From the NCBI GenBank assembly GCA_016927065.1, contig JAFGNJ010000007.1, forward strand, positions 51,944 through 115,943: a stretch of DNA of 64,000 nt, read 5' to 3'. Below are positions 40,349-48,265 of the stretch, piece by piece. The position numbers and the translations under genes were made by a program. The DNA is from Deltaproteobacteria bacterium. GTDB lineage: Bacteria; Desulfobacterota; B13-G15; RBG-16-54-18. Position 1 is the stretch's first letter; every line of letters starts with the position of its first letter. The notes beneath the pieces were generated by a model. The model saw nothing but the letters and a program-made list of their open reading frames with translations, was not told where the DNA came from and made no database searches.

Positions 40349-40474
40349 GTAGCCTCATCTGGTTACACAAACAGTCTGTGTTGAAGCGATATATATATTA
40401 CATTAAGCAGAGCTGTCAAGGAGGGAAATAAGCGGGCTGGACTCCCCTCCCGATATCGAGTGTACGGAAGCTCC

Positions 40475-40525
40475 TTGCCTTCTCCTATTGTTTACCATAT
40501 ACTGGCGGAAACCTTGGGGGGAAAC
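40475..40525 (+). promoter_or_regulatory. promoter/leader repeat copy 1 (upstream of radC fragment)
   Basis: TTGCCT, 17 nt, TATACT, followed by a G-rich SD. It contains the 16-nt core GTTTACCATATACTGG (40490..40505) that recurs at 40804..40819. Confidence 0.45.
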
Positions 40526-40804
40526 ATGAATGCTGCATCAGCACAACGATGGCGACACCCAGGGGGGAAACTGAGAGAGCTTGGGCCGGAGACGCTCTCC
40601 GATGCCGAACTCCTCGCCGTCCTGATTTCTACCGGCATTAAGGGAAAACCCGCCGAACGGATCGCCGATGAAATCCTCGTCAGATTCGGGTCATTCAAGG
40701 CAATGGCCAAACAACCGTTGCATAAGCTTAAAGAAATAAAGGGACTGGGGGCAGTGAAGATCCACCGCATCGCCGCCGCCTTTGAGATTGCACGGCGGAT
40801 GTAG
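40526..40804 (+). pseudogene. radC: radC (UPF0758) N-terminal helix-hairpin-helix fragment, lacking the JAB/MPN domain
   Basis: LSDAELLAVLISTGIKGKPAERIADEIL..FGS......L.EIKGLGAVKIHRIAAAFEIARR matches only the RadC N-terminal region. It stops where the protease-like domain with HNHPSG should follow. Confidence 0.65.
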
Positions 40805-40840
40805 TTTACCATATACTGGACGAAAATTAGGGGGAAAGTG
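40788..40840 (+). promoter_or_regulatory. promoter/leader repeat copy 2 (upstream of hsdR)
   Basis: TTGCAC, 18 nt, TATACT, then GGGGGAAAG SD before GTG 40843. It has the same 16-nt core GTTTACCATATACTGG plus a similar purine-rich tail. Confidence 0.45.
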
Positions 40841-43170: not shown

Positions 43171-44387
43171 ATGAGAGATATCCCCTTCCACAAGGCTGGC
43201 GTTGGGTGAAACTAGGGGAAGTGTGTGAAAAACCTGTCTATGGTTATACTGCAAGTGCGGAGCATAAAGAAGTAGGACCAAAGTTTTTACGAATTACAGA
43301 TATTCAAAATGGAAAAGTAGATTGGGATAGAGTTCCCTATTGTAGAGATAATGAGGGATTAGAAAAATACTTGCTTAAGTCTGGAGATGTTTTATTTGCT
43401 CGAACAGGAGCTACAACTGGGAAAAGTTTCCTTATTACGGAAACCCCCCAAAAAACAATTTTTGCTTCTTACCTTATACGAGTCAGAACAGGAAACAACT
43501 TAATGTCAGAATTTCTATATCAATTTCTTCAAAGTGATTTTTATTGGCAGCAGGTCGAAAGCAACAAGCGTGGTGGTGCTCAACCAAATATGAATGCTAC
43601 TTTACTCAGCCACATCGATTTACCTTTACCTCCTCTTCCAGGACAGAAACGGATAGTTGCAAAAATTCAAGAATTAATGCAAGAGATCGAACGTGCCCGA
43701 TCTGCCTGCGAAAAGCAATTAGAGGCAGCAGGGGCTTTGCCTGCTGTTTACCTGCGACAGATCTTCGAAAGCGAAGAGGCAGAGAAGTGGGAGAGGAAGA
43801 CACTAGGTGAAGTCATCTCATTTATAAAAAATGGAATAGTAGCAGAACAGAACTTTGATGGAAAAGGATTCCAGGTTACCAGAATAGAAACAATTTCCAA
43901 TGGAGTTTTAGATTCAGGAAAGATTGGTTGGGTAAACTTGCCATTAGGGAATTTTACAAACTTCAAGTTATTCAAAGGTGATATTCTATTTAGCCATATA
44001 AATAGTGTCGAGAGGCTTGGGAATTGTGCTATTTACGAAGGTATCCCTGAAAATCTTTATCATGGGATGAATCTTCTTCGTATTAAGGCTGATGAAAATA
44101 TTTTGAATCCATATTTTCTTTTGTACTGGCTTCGATCTAATCCTTGCAAAGATTATTATATCACTAATGCCAGAAGAGCCATTGGGCAAGCAAGCCTAAA
44201 TCAGAAAGATATGAGGCAAATACCAATTCGTTTACCAACTCTCTCAATCCAACAAAGCATTTGTTCTGAACTTAAAGAAAAAATGGCTCACGTTGAAAAA
44301 CTGCAATCTACAATCCAAAATCAGCAATCGGCATTAGAAGCCTTACCCCATTCAATTCTAACAAAAGCGTTTAAGGGTGAGTTATGA
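43167..44387 (+). CDS. hsdS: type I restriction-modification specificity subunit
   Basis: LPQGWRWVKLGEV... and two target-recognition domains. They are separated by conserved helices (LPPLPGQKRIVAKIQELM... and LPTLSIQQSICSELKEKM...). ATGA overlap with the hsdR stop. Confidence 0.9.
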   Translation: MNERYPLPQGWRWVKLGEVCEKPVYGYTASAEHKEVGPKFLRITDIQNGKVDWDRVPYCRDNEGLEKYLLKSGDVLFARTGATTGKSFLITETPQKTIFASYLIRVRTGNNLMSEFLYQFLQSDFYWQQVESNKRGGAQPNMNATLLSHIDLPLPPLPGQKRIVAKIQELMQEIERARSACEKQLEAAGALPAVYLRQIFESEEAEKWERKTLGEVISFIKNGIVAEQNFDGKGFQVTRIETISNGVLDSGKIGWVNLPLGNFTNFKLFKGDILFSHINSVERLGNCAIYEGIPENLYHGMNLLRIKADENILNPYFLLYWLRSNPCKDYYITNARRAIGQASLNQKDMRQIPIRLPTLSIQQSICSELKEKMAHVEKLQSTIQNQQSALEALPHSILTKAFKGEL

Positions 44388-45196
44388 AAGTCGAAGTTCT
44401 TCTAAAGAAAATTAAAGAATTTAAGGATCGTTTAAATGAACATTTTGAATTATGGGGAAATTCATTAAATAATACCATTCCGGATTATCCCATAAGAAAT
44501 AGCGCCAAGTTAAAAGAACAACAAATACAACTTTTCAGATTATATTACCAGCTTGATGAATATCTAACAAAATTTAGTAAATGTCGATTAATGCGTCACC
44601 CTGCGACTGGTATTGAATGGGATGTATACCAATCTTCGATTGGTAACGACGTTGCACAAATTAAAGGACCTTCTTTAAGTAATGCGCTTTTGGAACTTGA
44701 GGGGATTATTGGGATATTAGAAGGAGAAGATCAGGAAAAGGAGATTATGGCTGGTCGTATTTCGCGTGAGGACAAAAGGGTTTTTATAAGTCATGGCGGC
44801 GAAACTAAAGCCCTGGTCAAAATAGAGCGTTTTCTGAGAGGTTTAGGCATCACTCCTCTTATTGTTAAACATGAACCCAGTTTAGGAAAATCTTTGGACG
44901 ATTTGGTTGAAGAGCAAATGGATACTTGTATAGCAGTTATAATACTTGCTACGAAAGACGATAAAATTAAGAACGAAAAAGGAGAAGAGTATTACCAACC
45001 TCGGCCTAATGTTATACATGAAATAGGGCTTGCTCAAGAAAAGGTTAAGGACAGAATAATATATCTCAAAGAAGAAGATTGTGTTTTTCCTTCAAATATT
45101 TCTCCGAAAGTTTGGGGGAATTTTACCCAAGATAATATGGAAGAAGCATTTATTAAGATAGCAAAAGAGCTTAAAGCATTTGGCATCATTGAATAG
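44384..45196 (+). CDS. TIR-like domain protein (COG4271/PF10137 Cap12-PycTIR type) with unknown N-terminal helical domain
   Basis: Residues about 131-250 read RVFISHGG...FLRGLGITPLIVKHEPSLGKSL...CIAVIILATKDD...RPNVIHEIGLA...FPSNIS, the family signature (VFIVHGHD / FAVVLLTPDD / RQNVIFELG / PSDISG). ATGA overlap with the hsdS stop, and the hsdM GTG follows 8 nt after its stop. Confidence 0.75.
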   Translation: MKVEVLLKKIKEFKDRLNEHFELWGNSLNNTIPDYPIRNSAKLKEQQIQLFRLYYQLDEYLTKFSKCRLMRHPATGIEWDVYQSSIGNDVAQIKGPSLSNALLELEGIIGILEGEDQEKEIMAGRISREDKRVFISHGGETKALVKIERFLRGLGITPLIVKHEPSLGKSLDDLVEEQMDTCIAVIILATKDDKIKNEKGEEYYQPRPNVIHEIGLAQEKVKDRIIYLKEEDCVFPSNISPKVWGNFTQDNMEEAFIKIAKELKAFGIIE

Positions 45197-45204
45197 GAGC
45201 AAAT

Positions 45205-46713
45205 GTGCCTAAATTAAATAACCGCAAAATCACATCTCCTCAATCGCTGAATGCCTATATCAAGGGTATCTGCGACATTATGCGGAGGTCGGGGAGGGCG
45301 GGGGCGCTTCAATATGTCCCTGAGCTTACGTGGATGCTCTTCCTTCGCATTCTTGATGAACGAGAAGAAAAAGAGGCGGAGCAAGCAAAGGCGGTGGGCG
45401 CCGATTTCAGCCCATCCTTGGAGTATTCCTACCGCTGGCGGGATTGGGCAGTGTCTGATGGAGACAAGCGGCAAGAACTTCAGAAAGGAACCCTGGGCGG
45501 GTTTATGAGTTTCGTTAACGGCGACCTCCTTCCAGCGTTGAGAAAATTGAAGGATAAACCAGGTGCGACTCCGCGCCAGAAGGTTGTCAGCGAGGTCTTT
45601 TCGTCTTTTGAGAGAACCGGTGTGGATACGGAGCGGAACCTTCTGGACATCCTCGATAAGATCAATGAGCTTTCTTTAGACCATGTTGATGAAACTCATA
45701 TGTTTCCCATCTCCCAAGTCTATGAAGGGTTGCTCCAGAAGATGGGGGAGAAGAATAATGATGGCGGCCAGTTCTTCACGCCGAGAGAGGTTATTCGGGT
45801 AATGGTAAGGGTAATTGACCCGAATATTGGGGAGGTAGTCTATGACCCATGCTGCGGCACAGGAGGTTTTTTGGCCCAGGCATACCAGCACATGAAGCAA
45901 AAAACAAAGACAGGGATGGATATAGAAACACTTAAAACCAGGACATTTTATGGGCGAGAGAAAGAGAATTTGGTCTATCCCATCGCTTTAGCAAACCTTG
46001 TGCTTCAGGAGATTGATGAACCCCACATCTGGCATGGGAATACATTAACAGGGCTTGAGATTTATGGCGGTCTCTTCTCCGGCGCACCTGCTCTGTTTGA
46101 TGTAGTGCTCACCAATCCTCCCTTCGGCGGGAAAGAAGGTAAAGATGCCCAAACGCGATTTGCCTACAAAACAGGCGCAACCCAGGTGCTTTTCCTCCAA
46201 CACGTTATCGATAGTCTTGTACCAGGCGGGAGATGCGGGATTGTTATGGACGAAGGCGTGCTCTTTCGCACGAACGAAACCGCCTTTGTGCAGACTAAGC
46301 GCAAACTTCTCAATGAGTGCAACCTGTGGTGCATTGTAAGCCTTCCTCCAAAGGTTTTCATGAATGCCGGTGCTGCGAGTAAGACCAACCTGTTATTTTT
46401 TACAAAAGGTGAACCGACAAAAGAGATCTGGTATTACGATCTGGCTGATCTCAATATAACCAAAAAGCAACCCTTGGCCTTGGCGCAATTTGACGAATTT
46501 TTCAAGTTGCTCCCTGAAAAAGCAAGCAGCGACCGATCCTGGCGCGTGCCGATAGAAGAGATACAGGCAAAAAAATATGATATCAAGGCGGTAAATCCCA
46601 ACCGTAAAAGCGGAGGAGACACCAGAACACCTGAAGAGTTGCTTACCATTATTGAGGAACAAACAGAAGAGATTAAAAAGGCATTAATAGAATTAAGACA
46701 CAAAGGCGTCTGA
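45205..46713 (+). CDS. hsdM: type I restriction-modification N6-adenine DNA methyltransferase subunit
   Basis: HsdM_N-like N-terminus, AdoMet motif VYDPCCGTGGFL and catalytic NPPFGG. GTG start lies 5 nt after AGGAG. Confidence 0.93.
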   Translation: MPKLNNRKITSPQSLNAYIKGICDIMRRSGRAGALQYVPELTWMLFLRILDEREEKEAEQAKAVGADFSPSLEYSYRWRDWAVSDGDKRQELQKGTLGGFMSFVNGDLLPALRKLKDKPGATPRQKVVSEVFSSFERTGVDTERNLLDILDKINELSLDHVDETHMFPISQVYEGLLQKMGEKNNDGGQFFTPREVIRVMVRVIDPNIGEVVYDPCCGTGGFLAQAYQHMKQKTKTGMDIETLKTRTFYGREKENLVYPIALANLVLQEIDEPHIWHGNTLTGLEIYGGLFSGAPALFDVVLTNPPFGGKEGKDAQTRFAYKTGATQVLFLQHVIDSLVPGGRCGIVMDEGVLFRTNETAFVQTKRKLLNECNLWCIVSLPPKVFMNAGAASKTNLLFFTKGEPTKEIWYYDLADLNITKKQPLALAQFDEFFKLLPEKASSDRSWRVPIEEIQAKKYDIKAVNPNRKSGGDTRTPEELLTIIEEQTEEIKKALIELRHKGV

Positions 46714-47060: not shown

Positions 47061-47089
47061 TTGACAGAATATCTTTCTAAGAGTATACT
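47061..47089 (+). promoter_or_regulatory. near-consensus sigma70 promoter of the TA-like pair
   Basis: TTGACA (47061..47066), an exactly 17-nt spacer, then TATACT (47084..47089). It is followed by a GAGGAG SD and ATG 47119. Confidence 0.65.
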
Positions 47090-47118
47090 TGCTTTTAGAA
47101 GAAGAGAGGAGCGAACCG

Positions 47119-47910
47119 ATGGGTGAGGTTTATAGAGAACTTGGAAGTAGGATTAAAAAATTGAGGGAACAACGGGGGATGAGCCAACAGAGGCTTGCAG
47201 AATTGTTCGGGTTTTCACGTCCTACCATAACGCAAATAGAGATGGGAGAGAGAAAGATATCTGCCGATGAGTTAATAAAGCTGGCGCAGATATTTGATGT
47301 CTCCGTGGAGCACCTGCTTGGTGTGAAAAAGGAGCCGGAGGTGATCCTTAAAGAGACCGAAAAGAAACAAAAGATAAAACCTCAAATAAGAATCAATGTG
47401 CCACAAAAAAATTTAGAAAAGTTCAAGGAAGTTATTATATACATCCTCAACAAGGTCGGTTCAAAGCCTAATATTGGAGAGACGGCGATTTATAAGCTTC
47501 TCTATTTCATTGATTTTGACTTTTACGAGAAATACGAAGAGCAGTTAATTGGTGCAACTTACATTAAGAACCGTTACGGGCCAACGCCAATAGAATTCAA
47601 AAAAGTAGTGGATAAAATGCTTAGAGATAGAGAAATTATAAAGGTTAAAAGTAATTATTTCGAATACCCTCAAACAAAATATTTGCCCTTAAGAAAAGGA
47701 GACCTTTCCAAGCTAAAGGCAAACGAAATCGAAACTATAGATGATGTCCTGAACAGACTCTCTGATATGAACGCCTCTCAAATAAGCGAATACTCCCATA
47801 ATGATATTCCCTGGCTTACAACAGAAGATCAAGGAATCATTGAATACGAGTCTGTTTTCTATAGAACCGCGGCTTATTCGATAAGAGAATATAGTGAAAA
47901 TATTCAATGA
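47119..47910 (+). CDS. XRE-family HTH fused to Panacea/DUF4065 (SocA-like) antitoxin domain
   Basis: N-terminus IKKLREQRGMSQQRLAELFGFSRPTITQIEMGERKISADELIKLAQIF is an HTH_3 domain. The C-terminal IYKLLYFIDFDFYEKYEEQLIGATYIKNRYGPTP matches the DUF4065 pattern. The ORF-track TTG start at 47089 lies inside the -10 box, so ATG 47119 is preferred. Confidence 0.75.
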   Translation: MGEVYRELGSRIKKLREQRGMSQQRLAELFGFSRPTITQIEMGERKISADELIKLAQIFDVSVEHLLGVKKEPEVILKETEKKQKIKPQIRINVPQKNLEKFKEVIIYILNKVGSKPNIGETAIYKLLYFIDFDFYEKYEEQLIGATYIKNRYGPTPIEFKKVVDKMLRDREIIKVKSNYFEYPQTKYLPLRKGDLSKLKANEIETIDDVLNRLSDMNASQISEYSHNDIPWLTTEDQGIIEYESVFYRTAAYSIREYSENIQ

Positions 47911-48265
47911 AATTTCCCGTTTGCCCGAGTTCAATAGGGATTTTCAGAGACTTTTTAAAAAATTTAAAACCCTAGAAGATGATTTTAAGATCTTTATAGA
48001 AATACAATTGAACCTCTATCATAAGAAAAAGATAGATAATAAAGGCATCTTTCCACTAACCGGCTTAGGGTTAGAATATCCAAGAATATACAAGGCAAAA
48101 AAGTTTGCATGTAGATCTCTAAAAAGCAAAGGGGTTCAGTCGGGTATTAGAGTAATCTATGCTTATTTTGAGGATGCGGATAGAATTGAGCTAATCGAGA
48201 TTTATTACAAAGGGGATAAACAAAGTGAAGACAAAGATAGAATATCGAAACATTACAGAAGGTAG
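47894..48265 (+). CDS. RelE/ParE/HigB-superfamily toxin-like protein
   Basis: 123 aa and basic. The C-terminal GIRVIYAYFEDADRIELIEIYYKGDKQSEDKDRI resembles the RelE/Gp49-type beta-strand plus K-rich motif. 17-nt overlap with the upstream antitoxin-like gene. Confidence 0.6.
   Translation: MKIFNEISRLPEFNRDFQRLFKKFKTLEDDFKIFIEIQLNLYHKKKIDNKGIFPLTGLGLEYPRIYKAKKFACRSLKSKGVQSGIRVIYAYFEDADRIELIEIYYKGDKQSEDKDRISKHYRR

Follow-up and report, generated by a model that had tools for sequence, protein, structure and literature searches.

We analysed a 64,000-nucleotide (nt) stretch of DNA from Deltaproteobacteria bacterium (assembly GCA_016927065.1, contig JAFGNJ010000007.1, positions 51,944 to 115,943; the window below means this whole stretch), in which a gene here called X lies between hsdS and hsdM of a type I restriction-modification (R-M) operon. 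The genes hsdR, hsdS, X, and hsdM form a single tightly packed unit (Table 1). The start of hsdS overlaps hsdR by 4 nt, a purine-rich AAGGGTGAG at 44373..44381, within the 3' end of hsdS, precedes the ATG of X, and the stop codon of X (TAG, 45194..45196) is separated by an 8-nt gap from the GTG of hsdM at 45205. The initial annotation had described this 270-residue open reading frame (ORF), its ATGA overlap with the hsdS stop, and the hsdM GTG 8 nt further on behind an AGGAG, and all of this is confirmed by the ORF list and the sequence (45195..45205 for the hsdM junction); the peptide blocks quoted from X are likewise all found in its translation. The X/hsdM junction is the same in one related locus (L025) and near-identical in another (L001). 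X is a real gene and not a chance ORF, because it has full-length homologues (43-88% identity) and because the 4-nt overlap between hsdS and X recurs in them.

Table 1. Gene X, its domains and signals, and the surrounding hsd genes, in window coordinates.
Feature	Coordinates	Strand	Description and basis
Gene X (PDC-S35 match), 270 aa	44384..45196	+	N-terminal sensor-like domain and TIR-like domain; GC3 0.27; ORF list and raw sequence
ATGA, start codon of X and stop codon of hsdS	44384..44387	+	Read in sequence
N-terminal domain of X, residues 1-122	44384..44749	+	Three long helices and a beta-hairpin with conserved TGxxWD motif; AF2 pLDDT 94.4
TIR-like (flavodoxin-like) domain of X, residues 131-266	44774..45181	+	PF10137; Foldseek; profile match
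Glu213 codon, putative catalytic glutamate in QPRPNVIHEIG	45020..45022	+	Alignment
AGGAG, ribosome-binding site of hsdM, overlapping the X stop codon	45195..45199	+	Read in sequence
hsdR, EcoAI-like (type IB) restriction subunit, 775 aa	40843..43170	+	Pfam ResIII, SWI2_SNF2, EcoEI_R_C, HSDR_N; PADLOC REase_I E 2.3e-94
hsdS, specificity subunit, 406 aa	43167..44387	+	Pfam Methylase_S twice, i.e. two target-recognition domains; GC3 0.29
hsdM, methyltransferase subunit, 502 aa, GTG start	45205..46713	+	Pfam N6_Mtase E 1.8e-60, HsdM_N; PADLOC MTase_I E 1.4e-174

The C-terminal half of X belongs to a known TIR-like family. Residues 132-246 match Pfam PF10137 (CAP12/PycTIR TIR) with an E-value of 1.3e-20 and 74 bits against a gathering cutoff of 24.7, the match spanning positions 1-116 of the 119 in the profile. 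An AlphaFold2 (AF2) model based on 23 homologues, with a predicted local distance difference test score (pLDDT) of 87.8, consists of a helical N-terminal domain at residues 1-113 and a flavodoxin-like C-terminal domain, with a disordered linker at residues 124-128 (pLDDT <50). In Foldseek searches, the top match of the C-terminal domain was the TIR domain of SfSTING/Cap12 (E 2e-5), with TIR-STING (9lmq), followed by the TIR-APAZ protein of SPARTA and the TIR domain of SARM1, all with a probability of 1.0. The family profile also matches Cap12 chain 7un8 (E 4.3e-6), placing QPRPNVIHEIG of X opposite KPRDNVVFEFG of Cap12, so that E213 of X aligns with the glutamate of PRDNVVFEFG in SfSTING, which we take to be the native E84 that is catalytic in that protein. 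The blocks FISHG, ATxDD, and QPRPNVIHEIG (with E213) are invariant in the 23 homologues. Profile and fold searches are therefore in agreement with the earlier assignment of a PF10137/TIR-like domain with Glu213 to residues 130-250 or so.

Characterized PF10137 members (Cap12 TIR-STING and PycTIR) are effectors that deplete nicotinamide adenine dinucleotide (NAD+), and X shares with them the family, the fold, and the active-site motif, which makes the same chemistry likely, i.e. NAD+ cleavage after oligomerization; judged from its sequence, the TIR-like domain of X probably destroys NAD. On the other hand, X differs from Cap12 and PycTIR in having no STING, SAVED, or cyclic nucleotide-binding sensor and no adjoining cyclase, and it reaches just 25 bits with the NCBIfam Cap12 equivalog, the cutoff of which is 450. 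The absence of a CBASS or Pycsar signalling partner, noted when the sequence was first read, is borne out by Pfam, NCBIfam, and PADLOC scans, which detected no CD-NTase, cyclase, SAVED, STING, or cyclic nucleotide-binding domain in X or its neighbours, and neither a CD-NTase nor a pyrimidine cyclase gene adjoins X in any homologous locus read. Because the sensor of X would instead be an unrelated N-terminal helical domain, its trigger is expected to be something other than a CBASS or Pycsar nucleotide signal. Searches of phage records gave no match to X, and plasmids gave weak matches (~28%) to its TIR half only.

The N-terminal half had been described as helical and unrecognized, and this description stands: residues 1-125 are predicted to be helical and have no Pfam or NCBIfam match, and a fold search with the N-terminal domain (N-domain) alone returned no significant match, the best E-values being 0.44 in PDB and 0.97 in BFVD. 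We also considered whether the N-domain mimics HsdS, HsdM, or a phage protein; this is unsupported, no such fold match being found in PDB or BFVD. Word-indexed searches with N-domain alignments recovered 1 and 3 proteins and were uninformative; we therefore used an exhaustive search with a hidden Markov model (HMM) of residues 1-122 against 1.84 billion representative proteins (E <= 1e-3). This search found the N-domain in 176 clusters, nearly always at the N terminus of proteins of ~180-485 residues. The C-terminal tails that follow it fall into 32 unrelated groups, the larger of which, counted by representatives, are PF10137 TIR (16 besides X), Hypoth_Ymh (14), a group of unassigned family (12), a DpnII-MboI fold (6), and GGDEF (4). 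Further tails include TIR_2, a trypsin-like protease, and many without a known family, and PADLOC matches of the tails comprise PD-Lambda-3_B/Aga_HEPN, Aga_Helical-REase, ThsB, the retron-XI/LmuA protease, and PDC-S05.

All genomic contexts available for these proteins and for the homologues of X are metagenomic contigs, many of them short. Seven fusions of the N-domain to tails other than TIR had a readable context (P0123, P0155, P0198, P0180, P0270, P0204, and P0283, the last of which is on 17 contigs), and an hsd locus surrounds none of the seven; several adjoin integrases, toxin-antitoxin genes, or another TIR gene. Enrichment of N-domain homologues in hsd operons had been set beforehand as a test of the idea that this domain binds to, or monitors, the R-M complex, and the count among the non-TIR fusions (0/7) gives that idea no support. 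Together, the 176 clusters, the 32 tail groups, and the lack of hsd genes around the seven fusions argue for a generic sensor or adaptor and not for an R-M docking domain; from its sequence distribution, the N-domain looks like a transferable sensor (or adaptor) to which different effectors can be attached. Within the clade of X, the N-domain has a mean pairwise identity of 50%, compared with 67% for the TIR domain. It thus diverges faster, as expected for a sensor facing a variable cue.

X is also a member of a catalogued candidate family. All five HMMs of PADLOC PDC-S35 (PDLC05003-05007) match it, with E-values from 2.8e-22 to 3.2e-15, and the best match covers residues 57-268, i.e. part of the N-domain and the TIR domain. 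According to Payne et al. (bioRxiv 10.1101/2024.01.29.577857), BREX, DISARM, and type I R-M systems were screened for the genes embedded in them ("guilt-by-embedding"), and the PDC candidates obtained in this way passed a curation step meant to remove non-defence functions. X resembles these candidates in matching the HMMs and in being embedded in type I R-M; the difference is that PDC-S35 is a computational candidate, for which we found no account of domains, mechanism, or tests. The earlier view that the pairing of such a TIR protein with R-M was undescribed thus holds in part: the pairing is catalogued as PDC-S35, and we found no experimental work on it. The N-domain itself appears to be previously undescribed, and its modular spread and the conserved coupling to hsdS are new relative to the PDC-S35 catalogue, as far as the accessible text of that source goes.

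Homologues of X are conserved in their operon position. We found ~45 full-length homologues (43-88% identity), all from uncultured organisms, and read 13 distinct loci of the X clade. In 10 of these 13, X lies in the same EcoAI-like operon, after hsdS wherever the upstream sequence is readable, and these embedded loci span four bacterial phyla and one archaeon (the window; L025; L001/26/28, Thermodesulfobacteriota; L002, Nitrospinota; L003/20-22, Caldisericum and relatives; L023/24; L005, Bathyarchaeia; L029; L030, where only hsdM is readable and X is apparently interrupted; and L027). The ATGA overlap of hsdS and X is present in all eight loci besides the window that have a usable hsdS 3' end (L001, L002, L003, L005, L020-22, L023/24, L025, and L029), which supports translational coupling of X to hsdS, and most embedded loci keep the C-terminal ...AFKGE(L/I) tail of HsdS. 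Across loci, identity to the window is 87, 84, 64, and 55% for X, 83, 83, 79, and 75.5% for HsdM, 78, 71, and 68% for HsdR (three loci), and just 31-36% for HsdS. The position of this TIR-like gene in the operon is thus real, and it is conserved. Its association with the operon is long-standing, and hsdS-X is an exchangeable core between conserved flanks. This is also in agreement with the G+C content at third codon positions (GC3) in the window, which is 0.27 in X and 0.29 in hsdS compared with 0.49 in hsdR, 0.52 in hsdM, and ~0.5 in the genome, suggesting that the central hsdS-X block was exchanged between conserved flanks. In three assemblies (L020 7288-8004, L021 6689-8004, and L022 6844-8004), an identical X (P0026) accompanies hsdS genes of differing length (238/239 aa, a split gene, and 386 aa), indicating that hsdS varies or decays while X is unchanged. 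Other cargo is less constant: a RadC gene and a DUF4062/HATPase_c_4 gene lie between hsdR and hsdS (L020 4372-6786), an ATPase_2/DUF234 gene lies between X and hsdM (L020 8968-10353; L023 2270-3658), and an extra 242-aa gene without a known family directly follows X in L023/24. The conserved hsdR and hsdM flanks seem to be a hotspot for embedded genes.

The host system of the window is EcoAI-like. That X is embedded in a type I R-M operon, as the initial annotation had it, is borne out, and by its domain content hsdR-hsdS-hsdM is a complete type IB-like system: HsdR carries a helicase C domain besides ResIII/SWI2_SNF2 and an EcoEI_R_C tail, HsdM combines HsdM_N with N6_Mtase, HsdS has two target-recognition domains, and the genes are co-oriented and overlapping. 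The best NCBIfam match of HsdR is the EcoAI/FtnUII family NF046051, with 472.8 bits against an equivalog cutoff of 550 bits, so the system is a relative of EcoAI and not an equivalog. No tRNA or island-scale repeats were found flanking the locus, and terminator and promoter scans of it showed nothing remarkable.

Not all members of the X clade are accompanied by a complete R-M system. Three have no hsd neighbours: P0021 (68% identity) follows a histidine biosynthesis operon, P0036 (55%) lies beside an AIPR abortive-infection gene and HigB, and P0040 (45%) lies among unannotated genes. In two others, X is intact next to hsd stumps: L002 (2776-3934) retains 85 codons from the end of hsdS and 28 from the start of hsdM, and L027 (1629-2599) retains 47 codons of hsdM and no hsdS. 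These two are either operon relics or a cassette that moved with its junctions, and an intact X beside hsd stumps would be unexpected if the R-M complex were the sole brake on a toxic enzyme.

Our analyses on balance favour, with a moderate degree of confidence, the view that X is a self-contained anti-phage protein of the PDC-S35 family, sensor and effector in a single polypeptide, riding in an R-M operon. In such a protein, the N-terminal helical domain of ~120 residues would be a sensor or regulatory module shared with many defence effectors, holding the TIR-like domain off until an infection cue appears. The TIR-like domain would then probably oligomerize and cleave NAD+, or a related nucleotide N-glycosidic bond, via Glu213, and growth of the cell would stop or the cell would die, aborting the infection. 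A sensor-TIR protein of this kind would have been captured by, and be co-translated with, the type IB R-M operon, its placement there giving co-expression, co-transfer, and a layered defence with restriction first and abortive infection second, and it would need no R-M complex either for its function or for its silence. We infer this autonomy from the absence of hsd loci around the seven non-TIR fusions, from the stand-alone copies of X, and from the intact X genes of L002 and L027. That X rides in the operon is suggested by the ATGA overlap, kept in 8/8 loci while other cargo genes come and go.

Several observations weigh against this reading. The sample of non-TIR contexts is small (n=7), and of these P0155 and P0180 are on contigs of ~2 kb or less and P0198 on one of 3.7 kb. 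The presence of 10/13 loci in one operon type, with X glued to hsdS and its identity tracking that of HsdM and HsdR, fits a functional link to R-M, and the association of X with the operon is older and tighter than that of a casual hitchhiker. It is conceivable that the stand-alone copies rely on R-M genes at some other place in the respective genomes. The likeness of the fold to nucleotide N-glycosidases means that the substrate may not be NAD+, and the TIR-like relatives located at carA and carB mean that not every PF10137 branch is clearly a defence effector. Finally, no paper naming or testing PDC-S35 was found in the searchable literature.

An alternative is a PrrC-style guard, the mechanism proposed when the locus was first annotated, in which X would be bound to HsdS/HsdM (and possibly HsdR) through its N-domain and kept latent until a phage anti-restriction factor disabled the complex and so freed X to deplete NAD+. 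X sits in the slot of prrC, directly after hsdS in a complete type I operon, the conservation of the ATGA from Thermodesulfobacteriota and Nitrospinota to Caldisericum and Bathyarchaeia favours co-assembly at fixed stoichiometry, the identity of X tracks that of HsdM and HsdR, and PrrC and PARIS are precedents for sensing R-M inhibition. However, the N-domain stands in front of effector tails of 32 groups in a total of 176 clusters, and none of the seven readable non-TIR fusions is in an hsd locus, which is hard to reconcile with such a role, as are the three X-clade genes without hsd neighbours and the two intact ones beside decayed stumps. The N-domain model matches no HsdS, HsdM, or other PDB chain, and the N-domain diverges faster than the well-conserved HsdM, its supposed partner. 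Docking of the N-domain on the R-M complex is thus unsupported, the comparative sequence data give no support to a guard mechanism for X, and we consider this mechanism unlikely. A more specific version, in which the N-domain was co-opted in the hsdS-glued lineage to read the state of HsdS/HsdM, making X a TIR-based, PrrC-like guard that responds when phage anti-restriction proteins put a type IB R-M enzyme out of action, appears quite unlikely; in its wider form, this version would make the N-domain the mark of a large and so far undescribed family of immune sensors, each a single chain, with 32 or more interchangeable effector groups.

Like PrrC of the EcoprrI type IC locus, X is encoded immediately behind hsdS within a type I hsd operon, where it may plausibly back up restriction as a second line of defence; the X protein is unrelated to PrrC, however, and lacks its ABC-ATPase and anticodon-nuclease domains, so that any resemblance would be functional and not one of homology. 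In addition, PrrC is reported by Payne et al. to be almost exclusively embedded in type I R-M, whereas X and the relatives of its N-domain are also encountered away from hsd genes: near-exclusive occurrence was not seen in the X clade, with 10/13 loci in hsd context and relics accounting for two of the ten. A closer model for the autonomous working favoured here is TgvAB of V. cholerae, which is encoded inside a type I operon, functions when cloned without the R-M genes, and gives complementary protection. The two differ in that TgvAB, a GmrSD-like type IV restriction system directed at modified DNA, consists of two proteins, whereas X is one TIR-like protein, with abortive infection as its probable mode of action. 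The Rlo genes of Campylobacter are likewise embedded in type I R-M operons.

Two further roles for X are minor alternatives. X could be a nucleotide-binding or nucleotide-processing accessory without a part in defence (e.g. a nucleotide N-glycosidase or a regulator) that is merely co-transcribed with R-M. This would be in line with the annotation of the family in sequence sources as just 'predicted nucleotide-binding protein', with its Foldseek matches to DNPH1, the CMP N-glycosidase BcmB, and nucleoside deoxyribosyltransferases, and with the occurrence, in Chloroflexota, of TIR-like relatives inserted between the genes carA and carB or placed ahead of a PyrK-like gene. The carAB-embedded proteins, on the other hand, have no detectable homology to the N-domain of X (hhalign probability <1%), the other fusion partners of this N-domain are classic defence effectors, genes of the X clade are found in R-M operons, beside AIPR and HigB, or in variable islands, and PDC-S35 survived a curation against non-defence functions; a non-defence role is accordingly very improbable. 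Equally improbable is that X, instead of killing by depletion, makes a nucleotide second messenger that activates an effector encoded elsewhere, as Thoeris ThsB does; fusions of the N-domain to GGDEF cyclase domains (signal makers) and to ThsB-like TIR_2 domains speak for it, but X has no conserved receptor or effector gene beside it (its neighbours are hsdS, hsdM, or variable cargo), the characterized members of its family deplete NAD+, and most other N-domain fusions are direct killers (HEPN, restriction endonuclease fold, protease).

If X works as the self-contained protein proposed here, this would be another case of layered immunity within one operon, restriction acting first and a suicide enzyme of the TIR type standing behind it, and this arrangement would have travelled between bacterial phyla and into archaea. 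The N-domain is the more useful lead. It fronts TIR, HEPN, nuclease-fold, protease, and GGDEF modules and many of unassigned family, and, given so many effector types behind it and the lack of any known relative of its fold, it has the look of an infection sensor that is portable, the trigger of which, once found, would explain many orphan single-gene defence proteins together. The conserved coupling of X to hsdS also offers a clean system for asking whether embedded genes are guards or passengers.

The surroundings of the operon in the window contain further features. A 34-nt leader (GTTTACCATATACTGG...GGGGG, with a -10-like TATACT and a G-rich ribosome-binding site) is duplicated at 40490-40523 and 40804-40837, one copy ahead of a 114-aa ORF (40460-40804) that holds only the N-terminal domain of RadC (UPF0758_N) and the other ahead of the hsdR GTG; a full RadC gene follows hsdR in related operons (L020-22). 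Just downstream of hsdM, a low-GC gene pair (47089-48265) encodes a 273-aa protein with a helix-turn-helix and a SocA/Panacea antitoxin domain and an overlapping 123-aa ORF, the latter without a family match. This pair is probably a PanA-type toxin-antitoxin module, in which case the region from 40.4 to 48.3 kb would be a small defence island.

Other PF10137 relatives, with different N-termini, were found in two further kinds of context. Some are inserted between the carA and carB genes or, where contigs are short, directly adjoin one of the two (L012 6635-7429, L013 6995-7915, L014 6629-7441, L094 1107-1865, L086 984-1844, L096, L079, L092, and L080), with gaps of -8 to +15 nt and in metagenome-assembled genomes (MAGs) of Chloroflexota where assigned (L012-L014), and one precedes a PyrK-like gene with a 4-nt overlap (L089 1237-1992). 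A branch of PF10137 thus seems to be wired into pyrimidine biosynthesis operons. Others lie beside other R-M genes (L031 74-2473, L032 3-3579, L059 1374-5914, and L010 6788-11999): one immediately precedes the hsdM-hsdS genes of another type I family, another lies 392 nt ahead of a type IIG-like methyltransferase of 1096 aa, and a third, in a Methanobacteriaceae MAG, has divergent hsdS/hsdM nearby. The possibility that the carAB-embedded and hsdM-adjacent relatives share the N-domain of X was rejected (hhalign probability <1%). The proteins of ~240 aa encoded next to N-domain genes (L105, L110, L023, and L027) were also compared in search of a conserved partner, which was rejected because they are mutually unrelated. 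A ~240-aa protein with no Pfam match does follow a PF10137 gene in two unrelated contexts (L023 1411-2139 and L024 1312-2040; L077 2713-3354), with a phmmer E-value of 2e-55 between them, and is a possible partner of the TIR-like gene.

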